Source: a virus. Taken from it: 40,442 bases of DNA. The position numbers and the translations under genes were made by a program. The notes under the pieces are model-generated. The model was given only the letters and a program-made list of their open reading frames with translations. It made no database searches and was not told the DNA's origin. Position 1 is the first letter of the stretch. Each line of letters starts with the position of its first letter. This document shows positions 1-40,442 of this stretch, one piece after another. The stretch lies in the IMG/VR virus record IMGVR_UViG_3300031949_000092, positions 1 to 40,442 of that record, one strand, 5' to 3'.

Positions 1-127
1 ATTTGCCTCTGTTTCACCCACCGTCGTTACTGCCGTTCCCGAAGTAAAAGTTCCACTGCGATTTATGTCATAGACAGGCGTTACGGAATCCCCTGAAACT
101 AACGGTTCAAAAGTTATTTCTAATTTA
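1..127. repeat. 127-bp terminal direct repeat, identical to 40316-40442; a circular-assembly overlap
   Basis: Bases 1-127 are identical to 40316-40442. The repeat lies inside an ORF that reads through the junction in frame. Confidence 0.95.
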
Positions 128-1725
128 ACTGCTTGTTTTGTTTTATTGGGGTCACCGTTGTCAAAAATTCTCGAACGCCATTTAGCTGTTTCATTAGTAG
201 ATTGGTCGTCAGCCTCGACCTTATCAATTCCGTAACTTGTATTATCTCGCCAACCGATATATAAATCTGTTCCAAATGCTTTTACCGCACCAATTTTCAA
301 AGTAGTCCCCTGAGTCGTGCCTGTTGAAATTATGTAGGGAAAATTAAGCGTATTTGTCAACTCCGATGCTTGACTGCCAAACTCATAAACACCCTGCTCA
401 ACTCCAGAAGCGTCATCAGTTACCGCACCGTAGCCTATCACAAGCCTTTCCTCGTATTCGTCAATGGCCCCTGGATAGACCTCGATTATTTTAGTATTTA
501 CCAGCTTCGGCACTTTATCTATTATTTTTGTAAAGGGTTTGCTTCCCGTATAAACCGCACCCCGATTCCCGTAAACGCCCACTATCTCGTTCCTATAAGA
601 CCTTGCGGCATTAGGTGCGCCCATAGGCAAGGGTTCCGCATAGTTGTAGGCGCTTTCCAACCCGTCCCAGAAAAAGCGTTTAGACTCCTCGGCTTCGCTG
701 AAACTCTGCCCTTTCCATGCTTCAACTACTAAATATTCTTCGACCGTATAGACGCTCCTTGCCTCAAATCCTGGGTCGAGCTTTATTTTAGTTGGGTTAA
801 AAGTCCCACCCAATCTGTCAAAGAAACCCAAATACCTCTCATTCCCTACAACCCAGCCCCCGAAGAACCTTGCCATCATGTGCCAGGTCGCACTTATCAA
901 AACCCCGTAGTTGACCGTAAACTCTGCACCCTCTAAATCCGTTGCGACTTCGGTATCAACTCCGCCATCCGCAACCGTGGTCGTAACGTGGAAATGGTAA
1001 CTCTCCCCCGGCTCCGTTCTTAAAGGAGAATCAAAAGTAAAAGTATTATCCCCGACCACTACTGAGCCGTTCACAATAGTTTCGCTCCCCACGCTTCTAT
1101 TGTTTACGTCATGTAAAGTAATTGTCCAATCTCCCGAACCCACAACGTCTATGTCTATAACTATTGAAACCACAGGGTCGCCCCCAGTTGACACGTTTGA
1201 AGTTGCCGTAAAGCTCTGCCTTGCCGTTGCCGCCTCGGAAATCGAAGTGGGTGGTACATAATCGGTTGCACCAGTTCCCCCACCTGTTGTTTGTAAATCC
1301 GAAGTGTTGTGCCAACTAGTCAAAGCGTCATCAAACGCCGGAGAATTATCTAAGGGAAAATACCTGCCTATATTTGTAGCCAAAGCATAATAAAGCCCGT
1401 TATCGTGGACTACCAAACCCTCGCCTGCACCTCCGCTTACCGTTCTTAATAAACTAACCGAGTCGGCGTTGCTTATCGCATAAATCTTGCCTGCTGAGTC
1501 GTAAGCATATCGATTGGTAGACCAAGGGCTACCGTCCTCGAAAAAGTAGGGAAGTCCAGTTACAGTAGTTGAGCTTATCTTGGTAGTTTTCTTGGCTAAA
1601 GTTAAATAATTGGGGTCAGAGAATATATTGGCGCATTTTATAAACCTTGCACTATTTTCAATTCCTGATTTAGAAGAAATTGTAGAAATACCCCCAGCCC
1701 AATTATTTATTTTGAGAGAAGCCAT
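1..1725 (-). CDS. Virion tail/baseplate-like structural protein: N-terminal 575 codons of a 618-aa wrap-around CDS that continues at 40315-40184
   Basis: I checked every minus-strand triplet from 1725 to 1 and found no stop. ATG is at 1725-1723 with an in-frame TAA upstream at 1737-1735. It is absent from the ORF track because it runs off the window edge. Confidence 0.85.
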   Translation of the reverse strand, partial: MASLKINNWAGGISTISSKSGIENSARFIKCANIFSDPNYLTLAKKTTKISSTTVTGLPYFFEDGSPWSTNRYAYDSAGKIYAISNADSVSLLRTVSGGAGEGLVVHDNGLYYALATNIGRYFPLDNSPAFDDALTSWHNTSDLQTTGGGTGATDYVPPTSISEAATARQSFTATSNVSTGGDPVVSIVIDIDVVGSGDWTITLHDVNNRSVGSETIVNGSVVVGDNTFTFDSPLRTEPGESYHFHVTTTVADGGVDTEVATDLEGAEFTVNYGVLISATWHMMARFFGGWVVGNERYLGFFDRLGGTFNPTKIKLDPGFEARSVYTVEEYLVVEAWKGQSFSEAEESKRFFWDGLESAYNYAEPLPMGAPNAARSYRNEIVGVYGNRGAVYTGSKPFTKIIDKVPKLVNTKIIEVYPGAIDEYEERLVIGYGAVTDDASGVEQGVYEFGSQASELTNTLNFPYIISTGTTQGTTLKIGAVKAFGTDLYIGWRDNTSYGIDKVEADDQSTNETAKWRSRIFDNGDPNKTKQAVKLEITFEPLVSGDSVTPVYDINRSGTFTSGTAVTTVGETEAN

Positions 1726-1742
1726 TACTCTATTTTACACCA
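1726..1742 (-). promoter_or_regulatory. -10-like box TAAAAT placed 6 nt from the ATG (leaderless-type promoter variant)
   Basis: Minus strand reads TGGTGTAAAATAGAGTA-ATG. Spacing matches the TATAAT family. No SD is present. Confidence 0.5.
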
Positions 1743-12040: not shown

Positions 12041-13150
12041 TTAGACTCCTGTTATTGAATGGCCTTGACCGTTTACGTTTGGCCTCCAAGTTGCGATTTG
12101 ACCGATTACATAGAATCTTGCGATTGTTCCTGCCTGGTCGGGCATCATAAGGGGCGGTTGATAAAACCATCCGTTAAAGTTTGAGGGCATTTCCGCTTGT
12201 GCCAAACTCTCCGTTGCGTCTAAAGAACCCAGGTTTACTTTTTCAAGTCCAAGTTTTGCGTATTCGCTCGGTACTACCGTTCTTCCGAACCATCCGAGGG
12301 AATCTTCATTTAATTTATACCAAACAGCAGATGTCGCCTTTTTGTCCTTGATTACCGGCATTCCCCTGTGGTGGAGTGAAAGGAATCCTGCCGCTCCGCC
12401 CAATTTAGCATCAGCAGAACCCTCTCCTCTGACGCTCATCCTTGGAAAACCGCCTGAGTTGTAGTTGGCCCTGACCTGAGGGTCTAAAAGTTCCTCGTAA
12501 AGACTCCAAACTGCAAAAGTTGTTAAGTTAAGATTAGGTACTGCCGCGGCCTCTCCGCCCTTTGCGCAAGCGTCATCCAAAGTAGCAAGCTTGGCTAGAG
12601 TCATTGTTCCCCAGCTTGTGTAGGTTGCATCCAAGACGTCGTAGCTTGACCTTGTTTGTCCCCCGATTGTCGCTGCATTGGTTCCGTTGTCAACTATTGC
12701 CTGAAGGCCGTTTGGAGTATCTCCTGCTCCCGTCCCGTAAGCTGCCTCGGCTATCGCATCAACAGCTTCAAGTGCAGCCTCTTCATACTTATAGGCATCC
12801 AAAGGAATAACTCCCTCCGGTCCTGCGTTTGCGAAAGACTCTAACATTATGCTCACTTTGGGCTGCGTTCCTGCTGTGTGGGCGAATGAAAGAGTTATTT
12901 CATTGTCTTCTGCTGAAGAGTTTAAATTCTCAAGTCCGGTAAACCATTCAAATTGCGAGGATTGCTGGTACTTAATTGTCCAGTCCATTACAACTCCCCT
13001 GAATGGCTTTGCCTTGCCCATCAATCGGGAAAGATAAGTCGGAGCTTCTAATATAGTATCTACGACTTTCCCATGAAGCGCTCGTAATGTTTTACCCTCT
13101 ACTCTGTTTGAAGGGTTGATTCCATCGGGCGTTGTTGAAAATCCTGCCAT
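12041..13150 (-). CDS. Major capsid protein (HK97-fold type, inferred)
   Basis: 369 aa, positioned after the portal and scaffold genes. Size and composition are typical, but no search was run. Confidence 0.7.
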   Translation of the reverse strand: MAGFSTTPDGINPSNRVEGKTLRALHGKVVDTILEAPTYLSRLMGKAKPFRGVVMDWTIKYQQSSQFEWFTGLENLNSSAEDNEITLSFAHTAGTQPKVSIMLESFANAGPEGVIPLDAYKYEEAALEAVDAIAEAAYGTGAGDTPNGLQAIVDNGTNAATIGGQTRSSYDVLDATYTSWGTMTLAKLATLDDACAKGGEAAAVPNLNLTTFAVWSLYEELLDPQVRANYNSGGFPRMSVRGEGSADAKLGGAAGFLSLHHRGMPVIKDKKATSAVWYKLNEDSLGWFGRTVVPSEYAKLGLEKVNLGSLDATESLAQAEMPSNFNGWFYQPPLMMPDQAGTIARFYVIGQIATWRPNVNGQGHSITGV

Positions 13151-13160
13151 GTTTTATTCC

Positions 13161-13186
13161 AAAAAAAATCGGCTCCGTTGAGCCGA
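13161..13186 (-). terminator. Hairpin plus U8 between the scaffold and MCP genes
   Basis: Minus strand reads TCGGCTC-AACG-GAGCCGA followed by TTTTTTTT, ending 10 nt before the MCP ATG. Confidence 0.65.
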
Positions 13187-13205
13187 CTATTTTGTCGTTA
13201 GTATT

Positions 13206-13234
13206 ATTGTAAACTATCTGTCAAATATTAGCAA
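13206..13234 (-). promoter_or_regulatory. Sigma70-like promoter TTGCTA-N17-TACAAT upstream of the MCP leader hairpin
   Basis: -35 at 13234-13229, a 17-nt spacer, and -10 at 13211-13206. Confidence 0.45.
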
Positions 13235-18880: not shown

Positions 18881-19220
18881 TCCTTGCTCCTTCCGCCTTT
18901 GCTTTTATCAATCTGCCAACTTCCCTTCAAGTCCTTCCAAACATATTTTGCGTTCTTTACTTGTTCTTGAGTAACTTCTAAACCGCTTGTTGAATATTCG
19001 TCTAGATACTCCCGACTAAGCACTCCCCCCCTAAATGGCTGTAAAGCGTCTTTCCTGAATTCACGCCTTCCTTCTTTAATGCTTTCGCTAGTCCATTCTC
19101 TTTCATAGTGCGGTTTGTCTTTGTCTTGTCTGCAAACTTTACAGAAAGTTACTCCATAAACTTCGTCAATTTCTGCCAGCCGTTTATTACAATTACCACA
19201 GAGTATTTTTTTTTAATCAT
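18853..19220 (-). CDS. Zinc-ribbon protein whose ATG is separated from the body by a -1 frame change in an A9 run
   Basis: ATG-ATT-A9 at 19220-19206 (ATGA overlap with the GroEL stop). The 113-codon open frame (CGNC...CKVC) is reached only by a -1 slip or if the run is really A10. Confidence 0.5.
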
Positions 19221-20803
19221 TTCTTTTCCTCCTCAATCTCTGCGACAATGCCTTCCGCAGTAGTGAGAGATATTGCAACTGCAACTGCATTATTTAATGC
19301 TTCAACTAAAACTTGAGTGGGATCAATTATGCCTTCTTTCATCATATTGACAACATCTTCAGTGACAACATTAACTCCATATCCAAATCCTTTTTCTTTT
19401 ACTCTCAACGTCATTTCTCCACTATTTAGCCCTGCATTTCCAAGCAATTTATCAAATGGCTTTCTAATCGCATTTTTTAATATTCGATAAGCATAGTCTT
19501 CATCTTCAGTTTCGGGTTTTAAAACATCATCTATAAACAAAAGAACTGTTTCTCCCCCAGGAACAACCCCATCCTTGATTGATGAGCGAGTTGCAAGGAT
19601 TGCATCTTCACAACGCTCCCTGCGTTCTTCCGCTATAGATTCAACATGTCCCCCCACTCTAATAACATAAACTCCCCCGGTCAGCTTAGCCAGCCTTTCT
19701 CTTAATTTCTCTCTATCAAATTCTTTCTCTTCCTCTTTTAACTGGTTCTTTATTGAGTTAATCCGTTCCTTGATTTTCTTGGGGTCGCCCTTGCCTCCCC
19801 GGATAGTCGTCGCCTCTTTTGTAGAGACTACCTTGTCGGCGTGTCCTAAATCTTTTAATTCAATCTCTTTTAGTTTCATTTTGGCATCGCTTGAGATAAA
19901 CTTCGCACCCACAACCGTCGCTATATCCTGAAGTATGTTTTTGGTGTTGAAGCCCGGTGCCTTAATTGCCAGCATATTCGCCTTGCCGGTTACTTTATTA
20001 TTTATCAAGCTTACCAGTACCATGCCCTCTATGTCTTCCGCTATAACTACAAGGTTTTTCTCCTTTGCCTCGTTCATTTTTATAAACAAGGGCTGAATTT
20101 CAAAAGCGTCATCTAGCTTGTAATCGGTGACCAATATGTTTGCGTTACTTACCGAAGCGGTCATGTTGTCGGGATTTGTCACAAAGTATTCGGTCTTGTA
20201 GCCTGAGTCTATCTGCAAACCCTCCTGATGGTCTATAAAAGTATCCGGTCCCGTTATTTCCTCTGCCGTTATCACCGCGTCAACTCCTGCTTTCTCGTAA
20301 GTTTCGCCTATCAGTTTGCCCATTTGCTCATCCTCCGAACTTATCGTAGCCACTTGGATTTTCTGCTCTTTAGTCTTAACCGGAGTAGAGAGTTCCTTAA
20401 TCCTTTCAACAAGCAAGTCCCGCCCTTTCTCTAAACCGCTTCTCAAACTCATTGGATTTATACCAGCATTCGTAACTTTTAAAGCTTCTTCCATTATTGA
20501 ATAAGCTAGTAAAATCGTTAATGTAGTACCATCTCCCACACTTTCCACAGTTTCTCTCGCGGATTGCTTAATTATCTCCGCTCCTGCACTCTCAAATGGG
20601 TTTTTAGGATTAATGGTCTCACTAACTTTCAGACCATCATGAAGTAATTTTGTCCTGTGTGGTTGCCAAGTAACAATATTTCTGCCACGAATACCTAATG
20701 TAGTTGATACGGCTCGATTTACTCTACTCGCACCTTTTAGTAGTTTTTCTCTAGCTTTTATCCCGTGTATTTCTTTGCTATATTTCATGGATTTATTTCC
20801 CAT
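19217..20803 (-). CDS. groEL: GroEL-type chaperonin (Cpn60)
   Basis: Motifs VGDGTTLTILLA, AIKAPGF, LTGGVYVIRVGG and DGVVPGGE are present. It ends EIEEEKK with no GGM tail. The ATG at 20788 gives a canonical N-terminal length. Confidence 0.9.
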   Translation of the reverse strand: MGNKSMKYSKEIHGIKAREKLLKGASRVNRAVSTTLGIRGRNIVTWQPHRTKLLHDGLKVSETINPKNPFESAGAEIIKQSARETVESVGDGTTLTILLAYSIMEEALKVTNAGINPMSLRSGLEKGRDLLVERIKELSTPVKTKEQKIQVATISSEDEQMGKLIGETYEKAGVDAVITAEEITGPDTFIDHQEGLQIDSGYKTEYFVTNPDNMTASVSNANILVTDYKLDDAFEIQPLFIKMNEAKEKNLVVIAEDIEGMVLVSLINNKVTGKANMLAIKAPGFNTKNILQDIATVVGAKFISSDAKMKLKEIELKDLGHADKVVSTKEATTIRGGKGDPKKIKERINSIKNQLKEEEKEFDREKLRERLAKLTGGVYVIRVGGHVESIAEERRERCEDAILATRSSIKDGVVPGGETVLLFIDDVLKPETEDEDYAYRILKNAIRKPFDKLLGNAGLNSGEMTLRVKEKGFGYGVNVVTEDVVNMMKEGIIDPTQVLVEALNNAVAVAISLTTAEGIVAEIEEEKK

Positions 20804-21101
20804 AAACCATCAACACTTTTCCGAACGGAACTATCCTGAATTGCTCACCCTCAATCTTGAAAGTCTCGAATCCGCCCGCTGAATGAACAAGTGTTTGTCC
20901 GACTTTTACCGGGGATTCGACTATTAGCTTTCTTTCTTCGTCATAATAGGAATCACCAACTTTCAGGACTTTTGCCAACTGTGGGAATTCATCAGCGACT
21001 ATTTCTATTCCTTCGCTTGAAGTTTTATCGAGAGGTTCGACGAGTATATATCCGGCGACAGGTATGAAGTTTTCTATTTTCATCGGTATATTTTTTACCA
21101 T
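20793..21101 (-). CDS. groES: GroES-type co-chaperonin (Cpn10)
   Basis: About 100 aa, overlapping groEL by 11 nt. The pattern GYILVEP...GIEIV...AKVLKVGD...VKVGQTLV resembles Cpn10 beta-barrel spacing. Confidence 0.65.
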   Translation of the reverse strand: MVKNIPMKIENFIPVAGYILVEPLDKTSSEGIEIVADEFPQLAKVLKVGDSYYDEERKLIVESPVKVGQTLVHSAGGFETFKIEGEQFRIVPFGKVLMVYGK

Positions 21102-33233: not shown

Positions 33234-34175
33234 TTATGCCTCCGCTATTGCGACTACGATATTCCAAGTAGGAGTTGCCGAATTATAAATACAACCTATA
33301 TAGTGAGTTTTATTGGCTACTGTAGTTGTGGGAGCCGTGCATCCAATGGCTGTAAATCCAGTCCAAGTTAAACCTTTAGCCACTCCTGCGTCTTTAAGTC
33401 TAATTATTAGTTTTTGCCCATTAACAGGCGTTCCTGTAACTGTAAATTCCGTAGCATTAGCAATAGCAGTTAATTGATATTGGTCGGTAACATCAACATC
33501 TATTACTGCGGTTGCGTCATCCGTAGTCGTAACCACTCTCGGAGATATTCTTTTATTGGTCATCGTAACCGTTCCACTTGCAACATGAGCCTTAACCGAT
33601 TGCTGAGAGGGTACTTTGGTAGCTGAGTCTGTCGCCATATCATCCTCATCTAACATCCAAGCCGCACCTGATAATGAGGTCATGTCGTGAAGCCCGTCGG
33701 GAGTTACTGCAAGCGTTGCTGATGTCCCCGTTGTTGTCTCCGCCGTAGTTGCTAATTCAACCTTGCCTGCCGTAGTTGAATCCGCAGCCGTCACTAAATC
33801 TGTTACATCACTGTCAACTGATACAACGCCCGTATCTGCCCTAATAACCCCTGTAAGCCCCACAGGTAAGGTCACAGTCCCTGTAAAAGTAGGGGAGGCA
33901 AGAGGAGCTGCTCCCAAAGAGGTTAAGGCTGCTGCTGCACTTGTAGCGCCTGTTCCTCCTTGTGCCACCGATAAGGCGGTAGTAAGGCCAGACAACGATG
34001 TAATATCAGAGTTGGCACCCGAAGCCGCAAGACCGCTGATTAAATTAGACCTTGTAATATTTTTGGAAGTTCCATCGGCTGAGTCTGATGTGTCACTTAC
34101 ATCAACAATATAAAGTTTATCTCCAGAAGCCACCGAAGATAAACCCGTCAGAGAAGTTAGTTTGCTATCAGCCAT
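33234..34175 (-). CDS. Tail fibre protein
   Basis: The N-terminus has SKLTSL..L...DKLYIVD and LSVAQGGTGATSAAAALTSLGAAPLASPTFTGTVT, a widespread phage fibre motif. Confidence 0.8.
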   Translation of the reverse strand: MADSKLTSLTGLSSVASGDKLYIVDVSDTSDSADGTSKNITRSNLISGLAASGANSDITSLSGLTTALSVAQGGTGATSAAAALTSLGAAPLASPTFTGTVTLPVGLTGVIRADTGVVSVDSDVTDLVTAADSTTAGKVELATTAETTTGTSATLAVTPDGLHDMTSLSGAAWMLDEDDMATDSATKVPSQQSVKAHVASGTVTMTNKRISPRVVTTTDDATAVIDVDVTDQYQLTAIANATEFTVTGTPVNGQKLIIRLKDAGVAKGLTWTGFTAIGCTAPTTTVANKTHYIGCIYNSATPTWNIVVAIAEA

Positions 34176-34830
34176 AAATAAATTCCTCCTTTCTCATTCT
34201 CGGATTCATATAACTTTTAGTTTTTTTATGGCAGTCCACGCAAAGTGTCCTACCATTGTCAATAGCAAGTCGTAGTTCTGGAAATAAAGCAAAGGGTTTA
34301 ACGTGGTCAGCGTGCAAATCGGTATTACCCCTTACTCCACATTTAGTACAACTATAATTATCTCTAGTAAAAACGGCTATCCTCCACAAGAGATATTCCG
34401 TAGAAGTTCTAATTTTATGATTTAACGGAGTAATTCCACCCTTCCAAGATGGATTTTCTTTTCCACGATAATGTGGAAGTCTTCTTGCACTCCCTAATTT
34501 TTTATGTGTATTACTCATTTTTTTTCTAGTTTGTTTAGAAGATTTTTTACCATACATCGGATTTTTGTTACCCATTTTTGTTTCACTTAAATGTTTTTTA
34601 GTAATTTCGGTGTGTTTAAAACCTAATCCATTTTTGTTCCCTATAAGCTTCTTCCTTATTTTTATACGAGTTTCTGGTTTCATTGGATGTTCTTTGCCCT
34701 TCAGTGAGATAGAGTAACATTTATGACTACAAAATTTACTGTCTTTAAAGACAGGAGAAACTAAATATTTTTCTGAACAAGTTAAGCAAATTTTTTCAAC
34801 TTTAGCATAGTTCCATGGTCTATTTATCAT
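34168..34830 (-). CDS. HNH homing endonuclease with NUMOD-like repeats
   Basis: HADHVKPF...NGRTLCVDCHKKT is the HNH core. It also has repeated GKxHP/GNKNP..K motifs and the N-terminal CxxC..CSHKCY finger shared with 7809-8369. Confidence 0.8.
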   Translation of the reverse strand: MINRPWNYAKVEKICLTCSEKYLVSPVFKDSKFCSHKCYSISLKGKEHPMKPETRIKIRKKLIGNKNGLGFKHTEITKKHLSETKMGNKNPMYGKKSSKQTRKKMSNTHKKLGSARRLPHYRGKENPSWKGGITPLNHKIRTSTEYLLWRIAVFTRDNYSCTKCGVRGNTDLHADHVKPFALFPELRLAIDNGRTLCVDCHKKTKSYMNPRMRKEEFIYG

Positions 34831-35075: not shown

Positions 35076-35423
35076 TTAACTGATTCCGAGGGATGCTCTA
35101 GCTATCTTATTCTCTGTATCCAAAGTATTTTTAAGAGCTTTTAAAGAAATTTCTGCTTCAAACGACCGCGCTGGTGGCGTCCCAGGAACTGCTGGTGCCT
35201 CACCAAGGGTGGTGGCAGCAATACTTTCTGGAGTTTGGCCTGCCATTCCACCAATTTGAGACACTTCGGTTGTAATATTAGGAGGCAAATTAGACGTTCC
35301 GGGAGCCGCCGGGCTCGTTTGCTCCAAAGCAGGTATGGACATTCCGCGCTTTTTTAAGGCCGCCGCCAAAGCTGAACCCCCACCTAATGCGTTTCCGAAG
35401 CTTCCTGAACTTTGATTCTCCAT
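35076..35423 (-). CDS. Hypothetical Gly/Ala/Pro-rich protein
   Basis: 115-aa ORF preceded by a structured leader. Confidence 0.6.
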   Translation of the reverse strand: MENQSSGSFGNALGGGSALAAALKKRGMSIPALEQTSPAAPGTSNLPPNITTEVSQIGGMAGQTPESIAATTLGEAPAVPGTPPARSFEAEISLKALKNTLDTENKIARASLGIS

Positions 35424-35478
35424 AAAAATACTCCGTCTTTTGAACGGAGTTATTTCTCCTTAATAAATTATAACACAC
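35424..35478 (-). promoter_or_regulatory. Extended -10 promoter, AAGGAG at the 5' end, terminator-like hairpin, U-run, then AUG
   Basis: Minus strand reads GTGTGTTATAAT-TTATT-AAGGAGAAATAA-CTCCGT-TCAAAAG-ACGGAG-TATTTTT-ATG. The architecture matches 39429-39481. Confidence 0.6.
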
Positions 35479-35482
35479 GAAG

Positions 35483-35653
35483 TTACTTCTTCTTGGCTAA
35501 ACTCTTGTCTTGGTATAATTCTTTTCTTACAAGGTGTTTAACAAGTTCGCTTTGCGACATTCCATTCTTTTTACAATAAGATTGCATATCCTCAAATACA
35601 TCCTGTGGAAAAGAAAAAGAAGTTATAACGTTTCTATCAATTGCTTCTGACAT
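35483..35653 (-). CDS. Ribbon-helix-helix (Arc/Mnt/CopG-type) regulator
   Basis: I chose the ATG at 35653 (MSEAIDRNVITSFSFPQDVFEDMQSYCKKNGMSQSELVKHLV...), which gives a beta-strand then two-helix RHH layout. A promoter abuts this ATG. Confidence 0.65.
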   Translation of the reverse strand: MSEAIDRNVITSFSFPQDVFEDMQSYCKKNGMSQSELVKHLVRKELYQDKSLAKKK

Positions 35654-35689
35654 TTGATTTATTATAGTTATTATAATATAATAATGCAA
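35649..35689. promoter_or_regulatory. Overlapping divergent promoters around a perfect 17-bp palindrome (operator candidate)
   Basis: Minus strand: TTGCAT (35689-35684)-N17-TATAAT (35666-35661), 7 nt to the ATG at 35653. Plus strand: TATAAT (35672-35677), 6 nt to the ATG at 35684. Palindrome TTATTATAATATAATAA at 35668-35684. Confidence 0.6.
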
Positions 35690-35998
35690 GTGAGAAAAGT
35701 AATAATTAAATTACCGACAGAAAGAGTTAATAAATTTAGACTTCAATTAACCGGAACCAAAGGAAGACGGTTCTTGCGTGCATCGTCGATTCTAAACGCT
35801 CTGTCCTACTACAAATTCAGAGAAAAAACGGCAATTACAGTAAAAGAGTACATAGATGGCTCTTATGAAAATATTAATCAAACACTAGCCTCAACAGATA
35901 AGAATTATTTGTTATTTGCTGCGGCTTGTTTTTTAGAGGATTTTTTGTCTGATGATGTAATGAATAATGTAATAAAAAGGTATGCACCAAAACCATGA
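35684..35998 (+). CDS. Hypothetical protein, first gene of the only plus-strand operon
   Basis: I chose the ATG at 35684 (the track ORF starts at a TTG at 35654). It has an ATGA overlap with the next gene. Confidence 0.6.
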   Translation: MQVRKVIIKLPTERVNKFRLQLTGTKGRRFLRASSILNALSYYKFREKTAITVKEYIDGSYENINQTLASTDKNYLLFAAACFLEDFLSDDVMNNVIKRYAPKP

Positions 35999-36270
35999 AA
36001 ACACTTAAATTCTACAAAGACATGGATAAAATGCGCGAATACAGGAAACGCAGTAAAAAGAACAACTATAAACGGGGTAATTTCATTGAAGTTCCATACA
36101 TAAGATATACCGGCGACGAGGACTGGGAACTCCTTTTCTCCGACAAAAGCGACAGGCAAATAGCGATGGAACTCAAAAGGAGCGTCGAGTCAATTCAACT
36201 GAGAAGATGGAAGATTCTATCGGGTAAAGTTAATAGCTCTTATTCATTGAAAGGAAGTGAAGCGATATGA
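35995..36270 (+). CDS. Myb/SANT-like or sigma-r4-like HTH protein
   Basis: GDEDWELLFSDKSDRQIAMELKRSVESIQLRRWKI resembles a Myb-type W..(E/D)..L...IA..L.R....(I/C)..RW repeat. It has ATGA overlaps on both sides. Confidence 0.5.
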   Translation: MKTLKFYKDMDKMREYRKRSKKNNYKRGNFIEVPYIRYTGDEDWELLFSDKSDRQIAMELKRSVESIQLRRWKILSGKVNSSYSLKGSEAI

Positions 36271-36461
36271 TTTGGTTTATTATAATTTTACTATTACTAA
36301 TAGGATGGTTATTTGGTCCGAATATTGACCAATCTGAAAGAAATCGCAGAAACAAATTGGACGAAAGGATAAAAAAAAGATTCACGGATAAAGATGCACT
36401 AAAAAGTTATGAAGAAATGCAAAAGGAAATTAATGAGCAATCATCCTGGCCGTTTTTGTAA
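36267..36461 (+). CDS. Small N-terminally anchored membrane protein
   Basis: TM segment IWFIIILLLLIGWLF followed by a charged tail. Its 3' end overlaps the convergent virion gene by 32 nt. Confidence 0.55.
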   Translation: MIWFIIILLLLIGWLFGPNIDQSERNRRNKLDERIKKRFTDKDALKSYEEMQKEINEQSSWPFL

Positions 36462-38535
36462 GTATTGAAGGTCGCATTGCTTGTGCTGCTGCTTCAAGAG
36501 GAGGACCAAAAACAGTTCCTGCAATACCTCCGGCAATAGCTCCTGGTACACCCCCCAGAATAGACCCGCCAATAAGACCACTTATTCCACCTCCTATTTT
36601 ACCAACTCTACCAGCCATAAATGCCGAATTAGCAGCTTCTTCTGTTAAATCAATCATCTGATTAATTCTTACAAATGGTAATTGTAAATGTCTAATATCG
36701 CCGAGAGTTTTAGCCTGTAGATACTCATTTGCCAATTTTGGCGAAACACTCTCTAATTCCGAAAGTATCTCTGGATTTTTGAAACCCAAAAGAATATCTT
36801 GCTCACCAGCCATTATTTCTAAAGACGACATTATTTCATCGGCAGCCGCTAAATAAGCATTACCTATACCAATATTTTTTACATTACCCGTTAAATAAGT
36901 ATTAGTCTTTAGATATTGATATCCAAGTTTCTCTAATCTTTTTGCGGTATCATAGGCATCAAGCGGATTTACTTTCATAACTTCTTTACCAGTTTTTTCC
37001 GCTCCTGCGATATTTCTTAATATTCTGCTCTTTTCGATAGGTGTAAGTTCAATAACTTCTTTAAGCATATTTTCAGCCGCCCCCGCTGCTTTTCCTACCT
37101 CAACCTCTCCCTGCAAGCTTCCAATTGCATTTCTTGTGACCTTAGTTAAAACTCCGGTATCTCCTGTAACCTTGGATGCAATATCACTCATTTCATCTAA
37201 ACTTCCCGATACACCATAATCGAGCATCTTAGCTGAAGTTTCTATCGGTCTTAAATTTCTAGCTCTTTTAGTGGGAACTATAAATGCTGAAGAAAAAGTT
37301 TTCGCTGCGATTTCGCCTCTGGTAGGTAAGATTCCACCAACCCTACTAACCGGAGCAACTTCTTCGACCTCACCCAACGCTTTCTTGGCTATTCCTATCT
37401 CCGTAATATCCTCTGCCTTTGCGGCCATCTTGGCAACGCCCGCCTCTTCACTTGTAACGCCCGCGAGTTTACCGGCCTTGAGCTTCTTCAATCCTGAAAG
37501 AAAGGGAATTACATCCAATATCGTGTTAACAGGATGCTCATACGCTTGCTCTAACGGGTGGGTAATGAGGTTTTTATACTCTTCCACTATACTTCCGAGC
37601 ATCGCTTGTCCTGTTTCCGTTCTAACGAAGTCAACTCCCGGTCCGAAAATCGAAGGTCCGATTGTAGATATTTCTTCTCCTACTTGTTGGAAAGCACTGG
37701 GTAGATTAACAACTCCCTCGACTAATCCTTGAAGGTCGTTTAGTACGTTTTCACCGAAGCCTGCGAGACTTTTTTTTTCCGCAGTTGCTTCTTCAACGGC
37801 TCGAAGTTCCTCCGGTGGGGCCGTTTCAAAACTAGGAATAGCCTCTTCCGCGACTTGCTTTTCAACGCCATTCCCTTCATCCAAATTTAATCCTGAGAGT
37901 AATTTGTCTGAAAACTCTTTAGCTTGTTCTGGTGTCTGTCCCGCCTCAATAAGACGTGTTTCTAGTTGCTTTGCTAAATTGTTCAATTTTATCTGTGCTT
38001 CAGCATCTGTGTCTCCAATATCGGGCAGGCTCTCTGCAAGCGCCGCCCTTTCCTCATCCGACAGCGCCCTCCCCGTTTGGTTTGCTATCGCTCCAGCAAG
38101 GGAAAATGAAACATTTTCTCTTAAACCCTCAAAAGCACTGATGTCAGGCTCGATAGACCTCGCAATTCCGCCGATTATCCCAGGCTTTTCCGCCTCGCCC
38201 GCCGGCACTCTTAACCTTCCCCTGAAAGGTTTGGATATATTTTTTCTTGTCTCCTCAAGGAGTTTTATGTCAGAACCCAAAGTTCTCGCTAAACTGACTT
38301 TTTCCTGCTGGGCTTCGGTACCGATACCCGACTCGATGTCTTTCAGTTTAATCTCGGCTTCTTTTCTGGCTAATACTTTTTCCGGAGCCTGGCCCGTTTG
38401 GTATTCCGCAACTAATTTAGGACTTATCGCCCCCAACTCTCCGGCCTGCACGCCCGCCTTTACCTCACCTGTTTTGGTGTTGTAAATATCAACGGTTCCG
38501 TCTGGATTGTATTTTGAAATAGGCATAGTTACCAA
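36430..38535 (-). CDS. Internal virion/ejection protein candidate (large, helical, Gly-zipper C-terminus)
   Basis: 701 aa rich in Ala, Glu, Gly and Lys. The C-terminus has IGGGISGLIGGSILGGVPGAIAGGIAG, a membrane-insertion-like segment. Confidence 0.55.
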   Translation of the reverse strand: MVTMPISKYNPDGTVDIYNTKTGEVKAGVQAGELGAISPKLVAEYQTGQAPEKVLARKEAEIKLKDIESGIGTEAQQEKVSLARTLGSDIKLLEETRKNISKPFRGRLRVPAGEAEKPGIIGGIARSIEPDISAFEGLRENVSFSLAGAIANQTGRALSDEERAALAESLPDIGDTDAEAQIKLNNLAKQLETRLIEAGQTPEQAKEFSDKLLSGLNLDEGNGVEKQVAEEAIPSFETAPPEELRAVEEATAEKKSLAGFGENVLNDLQGLVEGVVNLPSAFQQVGEEISTIGPSIFGPGVDFVRTETGQAMLGSIVEEYKNLITHPLEQAYEHPVNTILDVIPFLSGLKKLKAGKLAGVTSEEAGVAKMAAKAEDITEIGIAKKALGEVEEVAPVSRVGGILPTRGEIAAKTFSSAFIVPTKRARNLRPIETSAKMLDYGVSGSLDEMSDIASKVTGDTGVLTKVTRNAIGSLQGEVEVGKAAGAAENMLKEVIELTPIEKSRILRNIAGAEKTGKEVMKVNPLDAYDTAKRLEKLGYQYLKTNTYLTGNVKNIGIGNAYLAAADEIMSSLEIMAGEQDILLGFKNPEILSELESVSPKLANEYLQAKTLGDIRHLQLPFVRINQMIDLTEEAANSAFMAGRVGKIGGGISGLIGGSILGGVPGAIAGGIAGTVFGPPLEAAAQAMRPSILTKTARMIAH

Positions 38536-39428
38536 CCATCGTCTCCTAAAGTTCCCAACTTCCCTTTCTTTTCGGTTCTTAATAAATTCCCTGCAAAGTC
38601 AAAAATACCAATTCTATCTCCTAAATCTACAAAATCTATATTGCTAGCGGTTTGCTCAAGCTGTGCCAGTTGCGTGGCTCTGTTTAACTGCGCTACATCT
38701 AATGTGGTTTGTCTTGATAAATTTGCCAATTCTCTATCTAAATCCGAACTAATTTGCTGTTTGAACAAGTCAAACTCCTGCCCGATGTTCTGACCCAACA
38801 TTTGTGCTTCCAAACCTAGTCCAGTAAAAGCCGCTTGTGTTCTTGAACCGAATTCACTTAAAAGGTTCTGAAGACCCGCTCCGCTTGCTTCCAGTCCTCT
38901 TGTTGCCGACTCTATCGCGGGTTGCAGTCCCTTAATCTCTGCCGCTGTCCTTCCTGCAAGCTGTCCTGCCGTTACTCCTTGTCCCGATAACGCCTGCTGT
39001 ACGGCTTGTGGCAAGTCGCGGATAGTACCCGATATTCCCCTTGCTGCCGTACCTGCCGCCCCGAAAGTCTGAAAAGCCTCCGGAATGCCCATGGCTTGTC
39101 TAACGGCCTCCAGTTCTTCAGGTACTTTCTGGAGCCTTCCGGTAAATTCTCCTAGCCTTCCTCTTTCTTCCTCTTGAAAGGTTGCCGCTTTTTGTTCCTC
39201 CGGTGAAGTTCCCGGTTGGAAAAGTCTGGCTATGTTTTGCCCCTCCGTGCTTCCCGTAAAGCTCGTACCAGGTACGTCTTGAAGCTGAAAGGTTTGACCT
39301 GCCGTTAATGGAGCGTTTGTGGGCAAGCCCGTAAATTGACCATAGACTGAAGTCGTGCCGCCGTACTGCTTCATTAAGTCATCCAATGTCTTACCGGCTA
39401 AATTTTCGGGAACTTTATAATAGGCCAT
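38529..39428 (-). CDS. Internal virion protein candidate
   Basis: 299 aa rich in Gly, Gln, Ala and Thr with low complexity. It overlaps the downstream gene by 7 nt. Confidence 0.55.
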   Translation of the reverse strand: MAYYKVPENLAGKTLDDLMKQYGGTTSVYGQFTGLPTNAPLTAGQTFQLQDVPGTSFTGSTEGQNIARLFQPGTSPEEQKAATFQEEERGRLGEFTGRLQKVPEELEAVRQAMGIPEAFQTFGAAGTAARGISGTIRDLPQAVQQALSGQGVTAGQLAGRTAAEIKGLQPAIESATRGLEASGAGLQNLLSEFGSRTQAAFTGLGLEAQMLGQNIGQEFDLFKQQISSDLDRELANLSRQTTLDVAQLNRATQLAQLEQTASNIDFVDLGDRIGIFDFAGNLLRTEKKGKLGTLGDDGW

Positions 39429-39481
39429 TAAAAAATAAAACCCCAGCGGTTTGCTGGAGTAGTTTCTCCTTATTTATTATA
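39429..39481 (-). promoter_or_regulatory. TATAAT, AAGGAG at the 5' end, terminator-like hairpin, U-run, then AUG (second copy of this architecture)
   Basis: Minus strand reads TATAAT-AAAT-AAGGAGAAACTA-CTCCAGC-AAACC-GCTGGGG-TTTTATTTTTTA-ATG. Confidence 0.55.
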
Positions 39482-40187: not shown

Positions 40188-40442
40188 TCCTCTTCCCCTT
40201 CATCCGTTAATTCCTCATAAATGAGATTGACTCCTGTTATTCGAGGAAACGTAACTGCTGAGCTTAAAAAATCGAAACCGAATTCAATCTCCTTGATTGG
40301 CATATTTATGTAGAGATTTGCCTCTGTTTCACCCACCGTCGTTACTGCCGTTCCCGAAGTAAAAGTTCCACTGCGATTTATGTCATAGACAGGCGTTACG
40401 GAATCCCCTGAAACTAACGGTTCAAAAGTTATTTCTAATTTA
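40184..40442 (-). CDS. C-terminal end of the 618-aa wrap-around structural protein (40316-40442 duplicates 1-127)
   Basis: The frame checked open from 40315 down to the TGA at 40186-40184. The protein ends ...LIYEELTDEGEEE. Confidence 0.85.
   Translation of the reverse strand, partial: KLEITFEPLVSGDSVTPVYDINRSGTFTSGTAVTTVGETEANLYINMPIKEIEFGFDFLSSAVTFPRITGVNLIYEELTDEGEEE
40316..40442. repeat. Second copy of the 127-bp terminal overlap
   Basis: Identical to bases 1-127. Confidence 0.95.

Follow-up and report, generated by a model that had tools for sequence, protein, structure and literature searches.

The window, meaning the whole stretch of DNA that was analysed, comprises the 40,442 nucleotides (nt) of the virus record IMGVR_UViG_3300031949_000092. 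The genome resembles that of a phage, and all but a few of its genes are encoded on the minus strand. The subject of this study is a short leader that lies twice between a promoter and the start codon of a virion-module gene. Gene B (35076-35423, minus strand) encodes a 115-aa Ala/Gly/Pro-rich protein of unassigned function, and its start codon adjoins the U-run of the first leader, referred to as copy 1. Gene A (38529-39428, minus strand) encodes a 299-aa protein of the virion module downstream of the second leader, copy 2, and is followed on its 3' side by an overlapping 701-aa gene. An earlier note, made from the sequence alone, had described copy 1 as an ordered design of promoter, AAGGAG, hairpin, U-run and AUG; on the minus strand, the description and the coordinates were exact.

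Copy 1 begins with an extended -10 promoter, TGTTATAAT (35467-35475, minus strand), which has no recognisable -35 hexamer and belongs to the motif class of ten promoters of the window that abut an ATG. The start of transcription is predicted at A35461 or A35460 (35460-35461, minus strand), 6-7 nt past the -10 element, because leaderless gene starts show a TATAAT-N5-6-ATG spacing. The nucleotides ttatt separate TGTTATAAT from AAGGAG (35461-35456). Within AAGGAG, the first segment GGAG (35456-35459, minus strand) forms the 5'-terminal competitor strand and pairs with CUCC at 35449-35446 to a mini-hairpin of 4 bp with a 6-nt loop and -4.9 kcal/mol. The A/U-rich loop AAAUAA (35450-35455, minus strand) is an A-tract that can pair with the U-run in the full fold. 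The intrinsic-terminator hairpin ACUCCGUU-caaaa-GACGGAGU (35430-35450, minus strand) was recognised by a terminator scan, by folding and by the covariation of its helix. Written as ACUCCGU(U)-loop-(G)ACGGAGU, it has the stem of an intrinsic terminator, 7-8 bp with four GC pairs and a loop of 5-7 nt, and it shares its CUCC (35449-35446) with the mini-hairpin. The U-run AUUUUU (35424-35429, minus strand) runs straight into the AUG at 35423-35421.

The twin leader in front of gene A, announced by the earlier note for 39429-39481, was found at 39481-39426 (39426-39481, minus strand) with the same order of elements and the same AAGGAG: TATAAT at 39481-39476, AAGGAG at 39471-39466, the hairpin at 39460-39440 and AUG at 39428-39426. 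Here TAG, not TGn, precedes TATAAT, aaat lies between TATAAT and AAGGAG, and AAACU follows the latter. GGAG (39469-39466) is complementary to CUCC (39459-39456), and the hairpin ACUCCAGC-aaacc-GCUGGGGU has 8 bp, five GC pairs and a 5-nt loop. The tail is U4AU6A, with the U-run at 39439-39430 and the U-tract UUUUAUUUUUU; the stretch between hairpin and AUG reads UUUAUUUUUUA. The terminator scan called both hairpins terminator-like, in agreement with the earlier note, and both dominate the fold of their leaders (for copy 1, -13.3 kcal/mol and z = -3.6). In both copies the U-rich tract is located directly 3' of the stem, as in an intrinsic terminator. Exact occurrences of TAAGGAGAAA in the window are confined to copies 1 and 2. 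A third member of the family precedes the major capsid gene (13148-13234, minus strand; leader design at 13211-13148). It contains a promoter-like TTGCTA-17-TACAAT (13234-13206), a hairpin at 13188-13167, then U8, and AUG 13150; its 5' strand CGAC (13197-13194) pairs with GUCG (13187-13184) and is not SD-like (SD, Shine-Dalgarno sequence).

Several other features were considered for these leaders and rejected. A hidden open reading frame (ORF) in the leader was discarded, as neither copy 1 nor copy 2 contains an ATG, GTG or TTG and the in-frame AUA of copy 1 lies only 2 nt from the SD. No usable -10 element fits into the 0-11 nt available for a second promoter between terminator and AUG. An SD hidden in the 3' arm is unconserved: the GGAG in the arm of copy 1 lies 7 nt from the AUG, and the other leaders have GGGG arms at 11-13 nt. 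A bidirectional terminator was dismissed for the lack of a U-run on the opposite strand.

The promoters of the two leaders have to be seen against their use elsewhere in the window, a context absent from the earlier note. At ten gene starts on the same minus strand (35052, 21101, 16134, 14144, 13965, 10048, 9819, 9271, 7067 and 2708) a TATAAT, mostly preceded by TGn, directly abuts the gene in the arrangement TATAAT-N5-6-ATG, and two further minus-strand starts of this type, 16442 and 35653, have a weaker -10 element. The pattern was matched 11 times against 1.24 expected matches, and none of 100 shuffles reached 11. A -10 element abutting the ORF is the signature of leaderless mRNAs described for Deinococcus-Thermus (PMC12340547). 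Because ten gene starts carry this signature, the promoter-fused start is the default gene start of the window phage; copies 1 and 2 depart from it, with about 40 nt inserted between a promoter of this kind and the ATG. The arrangement implies that leaderless mRNAs would be made from a promoter ahead of almost every virion gene. SD-led genes occur as well, next to many genes that start without any SD. The same abutting promoters were present in the relatives L008, L009 and L012 (L-numbers denote contigs of relatives compared with the window). The background promoter architecture TGnTATAAT-N5-6-ATG thus resembles that of leaderless expression in Deinococcus-Thermus and Thermus phages; the differences are the leader inserted between promoter and ATG and the probable host, a bacterium of the Patescibacteria or candidate phyla radiation (CPR). 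Literature searches on leaderless expression in Saccharibacteria or Patescibacteria and their phages returned nothing relevant.

Homologues of the gene A protein were traced to contigs with a conserved gene order. A leader with differing, compensating stems lies ahead of gene A in L002, L006, L011, L013, L016 and L017, for instance ACUCCGC/GCGGGGU in L002, AUCUCAUC/GAUGGGAU in L006 and AUCCUAC/GUGGGAU in L011. In L008, in L009/L010/L014 and in L012 the promoter abuts the ATG of gene A, so that the orthologues of this gene are either leaderless or carry a leader of the copy 1 and copy 2 design; the leaderless orthologues belong to more distant relatives. For gene B, a leader is present in the window and L002, and a leaderless gene with the N-terminus kept in L006, L008 and L009. 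L002 contains a further copy before a third gene, gene C, whose orthologue in the window (7067) is leaderless. Because genes A, B and C each vary between the two states among relatives, the leader is a cassette that is inserted or lost between promoter and ATG. In L006 (4265-4325), the deposited start of gene A (P0010, 366 aa) falls inside the hairpin loop of the leader; the true start is likely the conserved MA... start past the U-run.

A locus search with a capsid alignment yielded 42 viral contigs, nearly all with the leader design upstream of the capsid ATG. The order was a consensus promoter (often TTGACA-16/18-TATAAT), 5-9 nt, [A/U]AGGNN, an A/U-rich stretch of 5-6 nt, NNCC... leading into a GC-rich hairpin, U6-9, 0-45 nt and the ATG. 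At least 46 leaders of this architecture were collected from related phages, the majority (about 40 relatives) ahead of the major capsid gene. The capsid leader of L026, AGGAGAAAUAACUCC, has 15 nt identical to copy 1, which suggests that the leader copies of genes A and B derive from a capsid-type leader. Across 54 sources, a covariance model of the terminator alone recovered 49 elements, including all known copies and extra copies ahead of other genes in L056 and L058; it placed no copy in the leaderless relatives and none in the genome of a TM7 phage (L020). The U-run is near-invariant across the 49 matches. That the copies are beyond chance appears mainly from this comparison with relatives and not from the window alone. 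In L036 (2384-2471) two tandem leader units lie upstream of one capsid gene, the second without a promoter of its own; the unit of competitor and terminator is therefore not strictly tied to the 5' end of a transcript.

Other searches were less productive. An exact-pattern scan of viral contigs for the leader gave no match, single-protein locus searches of viral contigs with genes A and B gave nothing, and alignment searches with gene A gave one short metagenome locus and one viral locus and no genome match. Rfam (release 15) gave no match to the leader family, neither at gathering thresholds nor, for the leaders, at E<=5, and the literature searches turned up no description of it. Three weak Rfam matches elsewhere look like chance. 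A weak, sub-threshold match to the rpsB small RNA at window positions 40188-40314 (minus strand; 27.9 bits, gathering score 40, E = 0.1) sits in apparent coding sequence and is probably a chance match.

The leaders of the family contain two helices that exclude each other. In 33 of the 47 distinct leaders the 5' strand can form at least four contiguous Watson-Crick pairs with the first bases of the stem. Mismatched partners of leader and stem reach that pairing in 21 %, and the observed value was not attained in any of 20000 permutations of the partners; among composition-preserving shuffles the mean was 6.4 such leaders and the maximum 15. At least 16 types of pairs occurred among the leaders, and the mini-hairpin loop measured 5-6 nt in most of them. 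The columns of the mini-hairpin were scored on a model-derived alignment that had been fitted to the terminator alone. Its four columns were paired in 74.5 % of the cells compared to 53.6 % in shuffles (0 of 500 as high), with a covariation score of 0.62 against 0.24 in shuffles and at most 0.28 in slid controls. For the terminator helix, 79.2 % of the cells were paired versus 66.0 % in shuffles (0 of 500), and 32 G-U pairs stood against two A-C mismatches. Where the shared strand has a U, the 5' strand offers an A in 13 leaders and the 3' arm a wobble G in 18 leaders. The alternative helix shares CUCC with the 5' arm of the terminator and thereby excludes the terminator, the arrangement of an attenuator. 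When truncated transcripts were folded, the mini-hairpin had the lowest energy as long as the final 2-3 nt of the 3' arm were missing, which sets it in competition for precisely those bottom pairs on whose closure termination depends. The pairs differ even within one phage, with GGAG/CUCC and CGAC/GUCG in the window and four kinds in L002/L018, which argues for pairing of RNA and against recognition by one DNA-binding protein.

The earlier note had laid its emphasis on AAGGAG as an SD. Sub-words of an SD (GGAG, GAGG and AGGA) do occur among the 5' strands, and the non-SD strands CGAC, GGUA, GGCU, AGCG, GAGC, GAAG and CGAG are used equally and with equal complementarity; GAGA was also seen. Gene A of L013, the Zn-type leader of L018 (ATG 11959) and several capsid leaders possess an AGGAGG of their own beside the AUG and still keep the 5' strand. 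Because many 5' strands are not SD-like and some leaders have their own AGGAGG, the property conserved across the family is complementarity to the base of the stem rather than SD identity or ribosome binding. The emphasis on the SD could thus not be upheld: the competitor strand may be spelled in several ways, AAGGAG among them, and we have low confidence in its role as SD. The same observations bear on the proposal of a split ribosome-binding site (RBS), in which the 5'-terminal AAGGAG would be the real SD for AUG 35423 and the hairpin would shorten the spacer, as in genes 38 and 25 of phage T4, where an SD-like sequence and the AUG are likewise separated by a stable hairpin. AAGGAG is a perfect SD, SDs are used at other genes of the window phage, and no SD lies between U-run and AUG in either window copy. 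In the full fold the pairing of A-tract and U-run sets AAGG and AUG at the two ends of one helix. For copy 1 the folded single-stranded spacing is 5 + 6 = 11 nt, at the border of the functional range of 5-11 nt and the value at which the split RBS of T4 gene 25 was reported to work (PMC3014915). However, the spacing is 16 nt in copy 2 and ranges from 11 to 21 nt across the leaders of genes A and B, and in the family U-run and AUG lie between 0 and about 45 nt apart. A spacer hairpin needs no near-invariant run of U6-9; in the leaders this terminator-grade U-run is conserved and the SD is not, and many genes of the window phage start without any SD. As a general role the split RBS is unlikely, although copy 1, with its 11-nt spacing, may have a secondary role in translation.

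A purine-rich, SD-like 5' end could also stabilise the mRNA. The leader would then act as a STAB-SD or SP82-type polypurine element that binds ribosomes without initiation, or the 5'-terminal hairpin would shield the transcript from decay dependent on the 5' end, and hairpin and U-run would serve mainly stability or ribosome loading. STAB-SD is an established kind of element, and the leader of E. coli rnd is an example of a hairpin with U-run that functions in stability and ribosome loading. The purine-rich element lies 0-3 nt from the predicted 5' end in all promoter-linked copies, AAGGAG occupies +1 to +6 in the two window copies and is not followed by a start codon at a distance of 5-10 nt, as in a STAB-SD, and the family is concentrated on the capsid mRNA, which is expected to be abundant and stable. 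SD-likeness is, however, not conserved in the homologues, and with the terminator hairpin formed the 5' strand is a free tail of 10-12 nt and not protective. A plain stabiliser needs no two exclusive helices, yet both covary, and the second unit of the tandem pair in L036 is not at a 5' end. Stabilisation as the main function is therefore rather improbable. For an autonomous RNA of about 45 nt, the third proposal of the earlier note, none of the tests pointed to an independent function. A small RNA in its minimal form has this anatomy of promoter, short transcribed segment, terminator and U-tail, and an abundant RNA of about 40 nt with the free 5' end AAGGAGAAA might act in trans as a decoy of the 16S anti-SD favouring leaderless mRNAs, or as a seed against CU-rich targets. 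The heavy reliance on leaderless genes would make such a decoy selectively neutral for those genes, but the window phage also has SD-led genes. Moreover, the 5' sequences vary widely across the family, even in one phage, with no common target evident; a trans-acting seed needs no covariation with the base of the stem; and the position immediately upstream of a gene start, with promoter-fused orthologues, argues for a role in cis. We consider a small-RNA function highly improbable, and the terminated RNA of about 40 nt is expected as a by-product. The least credible to us is a DNA operator, in which the palindrome GGAG-N6-CUCC at +2 to +15 would bind a dimeric phage repressor, for example the RHH protein encoded at 35483-35653, directly upstream of copy 1, and the apparent covariation would be half-site symmetry. 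A site with 4-bp arms and a 6-bp spacer has a geometry typical of protein binding, and G-U pairs are not clearly enriched in the 4-bp helix. Opposed to an operator are the different palindromes within one phage, the gene B leader of L002 without an upstream RHH gene, and the internal G-U pairs in 5-6 leaders, with A-C mismatches confined to the helix ends. The inner positions vary and covary instead of being conserved, a pattern closer to RNA pairing than to base-specific recognition.

We regard copies 1 and 2 as, probably, a promoter-proximal attenuator that consists of an intrinsic terminator and a built-in 5' competitor strand. Of the three options in the earlier note the attenuator is the best, because the three-segment geometry it had proposed, with the 5' GGAG facing CUCC of the 5' arm, is supported by the covariation seen across about 46 leaders of the family. 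The leader most likely meters transcription into virion genes rather than binding ribosomes. On this model, a sigma-70-type extended -10 promoter of the host would start the RNA at about A35461/35460, and GGAG (bases 2-6 of the RNA) would fold back on CUCC 10 nt downstream into the 4-bp mini-hairpin at the extreme 5' end. CUCC would double as the bottom of the 5' arm of the terminator, a GC-rich stem of 7-8 bp followed by the U-run. As the two structures could not coexist, a pre-formed mini-hairpin would compete for the pairs whose closure triggers the release of the RNA. Termination would be partial, and the fraction of polymerases entering the virion gene would be set, possibly in a regulated manner, by the balance of the two helices. 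The AUG past the U-run would be translated without a nearby SD, like many other genes of the window phage.

Several observations weigh against an attenuator. The mini-hairpin is weak (-2.4 to -5 kcal/mol) in comparison with the terminator (-6.6 to -12 kcal/mol); the terminator wins at equilibrium, and therefore any effect would be kinetic and could be small. Enrichment of G-U pairs, by which RNA helices are usually recognised, reaches only a modest level in the helix of 4 bp, and the leaders are related by descent, so that the shuffle statistics overstate their independence. No sensor was recognised, neither a leader ORF nor an aptamer known to Rfam nor, among the window proteins scanned, an antiterminator protein; that the attenuator is 'regulated' is therefore no more than a possibility. 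It is also puzzling that the capsid gene, which needs high expression, should lie behind a strong terminator. What the comparison shows are the sequence elements, their recurrence at orthologous and paralogous sites, the covariation of both helices and their mutual exclusion; the start site, real termination, read-through and the size of the effect are inferred, and a factor such as the 30S subunit, a protein or the level of nucleoside triphosphates may shift the balance.

Among known systems the nearest analogue is pyrG of Bacillus subtilis, in which G residues at the 5' end pair with the pyrimidine-rich 5' part of the attenuator to form an antitermination hairpin; the extra G residues are added by slippage at the GGGC start under low CTP (PMC7039003). 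The leaders share with pyrG the succession of promoter, 5'-terminal purine segment, terminator with a 5' arm that pairs to this segment, and gene. They differ in that the pairing strand is made by slippage in pyrG, whereas in the leaders its 4 complementary nt are part of the encoded sequence. Most leaders lack a slippage-prone start of three or more G; such a run was present only in L016 (GGGG) and gene C of L002 (GGG), the start context being otherwise AAGGAG or AGGAG. The genes downstream are phage virion genes. The trp, pyrBI, T-box and riboswitch platforms also place two exclusive, strand-sharing helices, one of them an intrinsic terminator, between promoter and coding region; in contrast, the present leaders have no leader peptide and no aptamer or known family, their antiterminator measures 4 bp at the extreme 5' end, and the whole element comprises about 40 nt. 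Late control in lambdoid phages proceeds through the unit pR'-6S RNA-tR' with the antiterminator Q. The likeness lies in a strong, constitutive-looking promoter, a terminator that follows at once, late or virion genes, and the short terminated RNAs to be expected. A Q-like antiterminator was, however, not recognised among the 29 distinct window proteins scanned with Pfam and/or PHROGs, a set that leaves out many small ORFs, and Q families are diverse. A sigma-dependent pause element (-10-like TANNNT) in the initially transcribed region was not enriched (10 of 46 leaders versus 11.1 expected from shuffles). Furthermore, the genomes carry several separate units instead of one late operon.

If the attenuator model holds, the leader would be among the smallest attenuator designs known, a hard-coded version of the 5'-end/terminator pairing of pyrG and a portable cassette reused ahead of capsid and other virion genes. 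Should the 5' hairpin prove to be without effect, what is left is an ordinary terminator in an odd position past a promoter. A large, uncultivated clade carries the leader; its capsid homologues number more than 430. To our knowledge, essentially nothing is known about late-gene control in phages of CPR/Patescibacteria hosts; the leader gives a handle on it, and its analysis exposed the genome-wide use of leaderless promoters in such phages. As a short, sequence-diverse and covariation-backed element it lends itself to easy in vitro testing and is a potential tunable terminator part. A more far-reaching reading, which we hold with little confidence, would see a new family of minimal 'self-competing terminator' RNAs of about 40 nt, without aptamer or leader peptide, that gate the transcription of virion genes in a large clade of CPR/Patescibacteria phages. 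The switch would be worked by a binder of the free 5' strand. At the SD-like genes A and B this binder could be the anti-SD of the 30S subunit, and read-through would then report the availability of ribosomes; alternatively, the terminated RNAs, if abundant, could serve as anti-SD decoys that bias translation to leaderless mRNAs.

A second, attenuator-like type of leader was observed at window positions 11262-11076 (minus strand). CGUAAGG (11249-11243) can pair with CCUUACG over 7 bp (-9.3 kcal/mol), a pairing that excludes the terminator AGCACCU-uacg-AGGUGCU (11238-11221), which is followed by U5. Directly after it, AUG 11210 starts an unlisted ORF of 44 aa, a zinc ribbon (MAGKKKEKKEKLEVKISDGICPECESGKLEDGSDCPNCEGTGKV). 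The alternative pairing within 11249-11221 is kept with compensatory changes in L018, L019/L022, L023, L024, L027 and L030. This second type indicates that the window phage uses control by alternative hairpins elsewhere too, which speaks for the attenuator reading of copies 1 and 2.

The window further encodes the large and small terminase, GroEL, GroES, a CHAP lysin, a tail fibre and an HNH endonuclease. GroEL (528 aa, 19217-20803) and GroES (102 aa, 20793-21101) lie together on the minus strand (19217-21101). No close DNA relatives of the window were found among GenBank phages, and a tRNA/tmRNA scan detected none. The capsid protein of the window matched that of a distantly related TM7 (Saccharibacteria) phage, DolZOral124_53_65, which also encodes Cpn60, and another capsid homologue is filed under a metagenome-assembled genome of Patescibacteria. 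Together these clues make a Patescibacteria/CPR bacterium the likely host of the window phage.

At 35640-35700, next to copy 1, leaderless-type promoters overlap back to back on both strands: CTATAATAAATCAA-ATG on the minus strand opens the RHH/CopG-like gene (35653-35483), and TATAATATAATA-ATG on the plus strand leads into a three-gene module of opposite orientation (35654-36461). This region may be a small regulatory switch inside the virion module. A gene resembling HNH/NUMOD3 homing endonucleases (34168-34830, minus strand) lies between the small virion genes and the tail-fibre gene; L002 and L009 lack it at the matching position, and it is a probable mobile insertion. A nozzle-like gene, about 610 aa in relatives, seems to span the ends of the window (1-1742 and 40188-40442), and the source contig measures 40456 nt, which is consistent with a circularly permuted complete genome.

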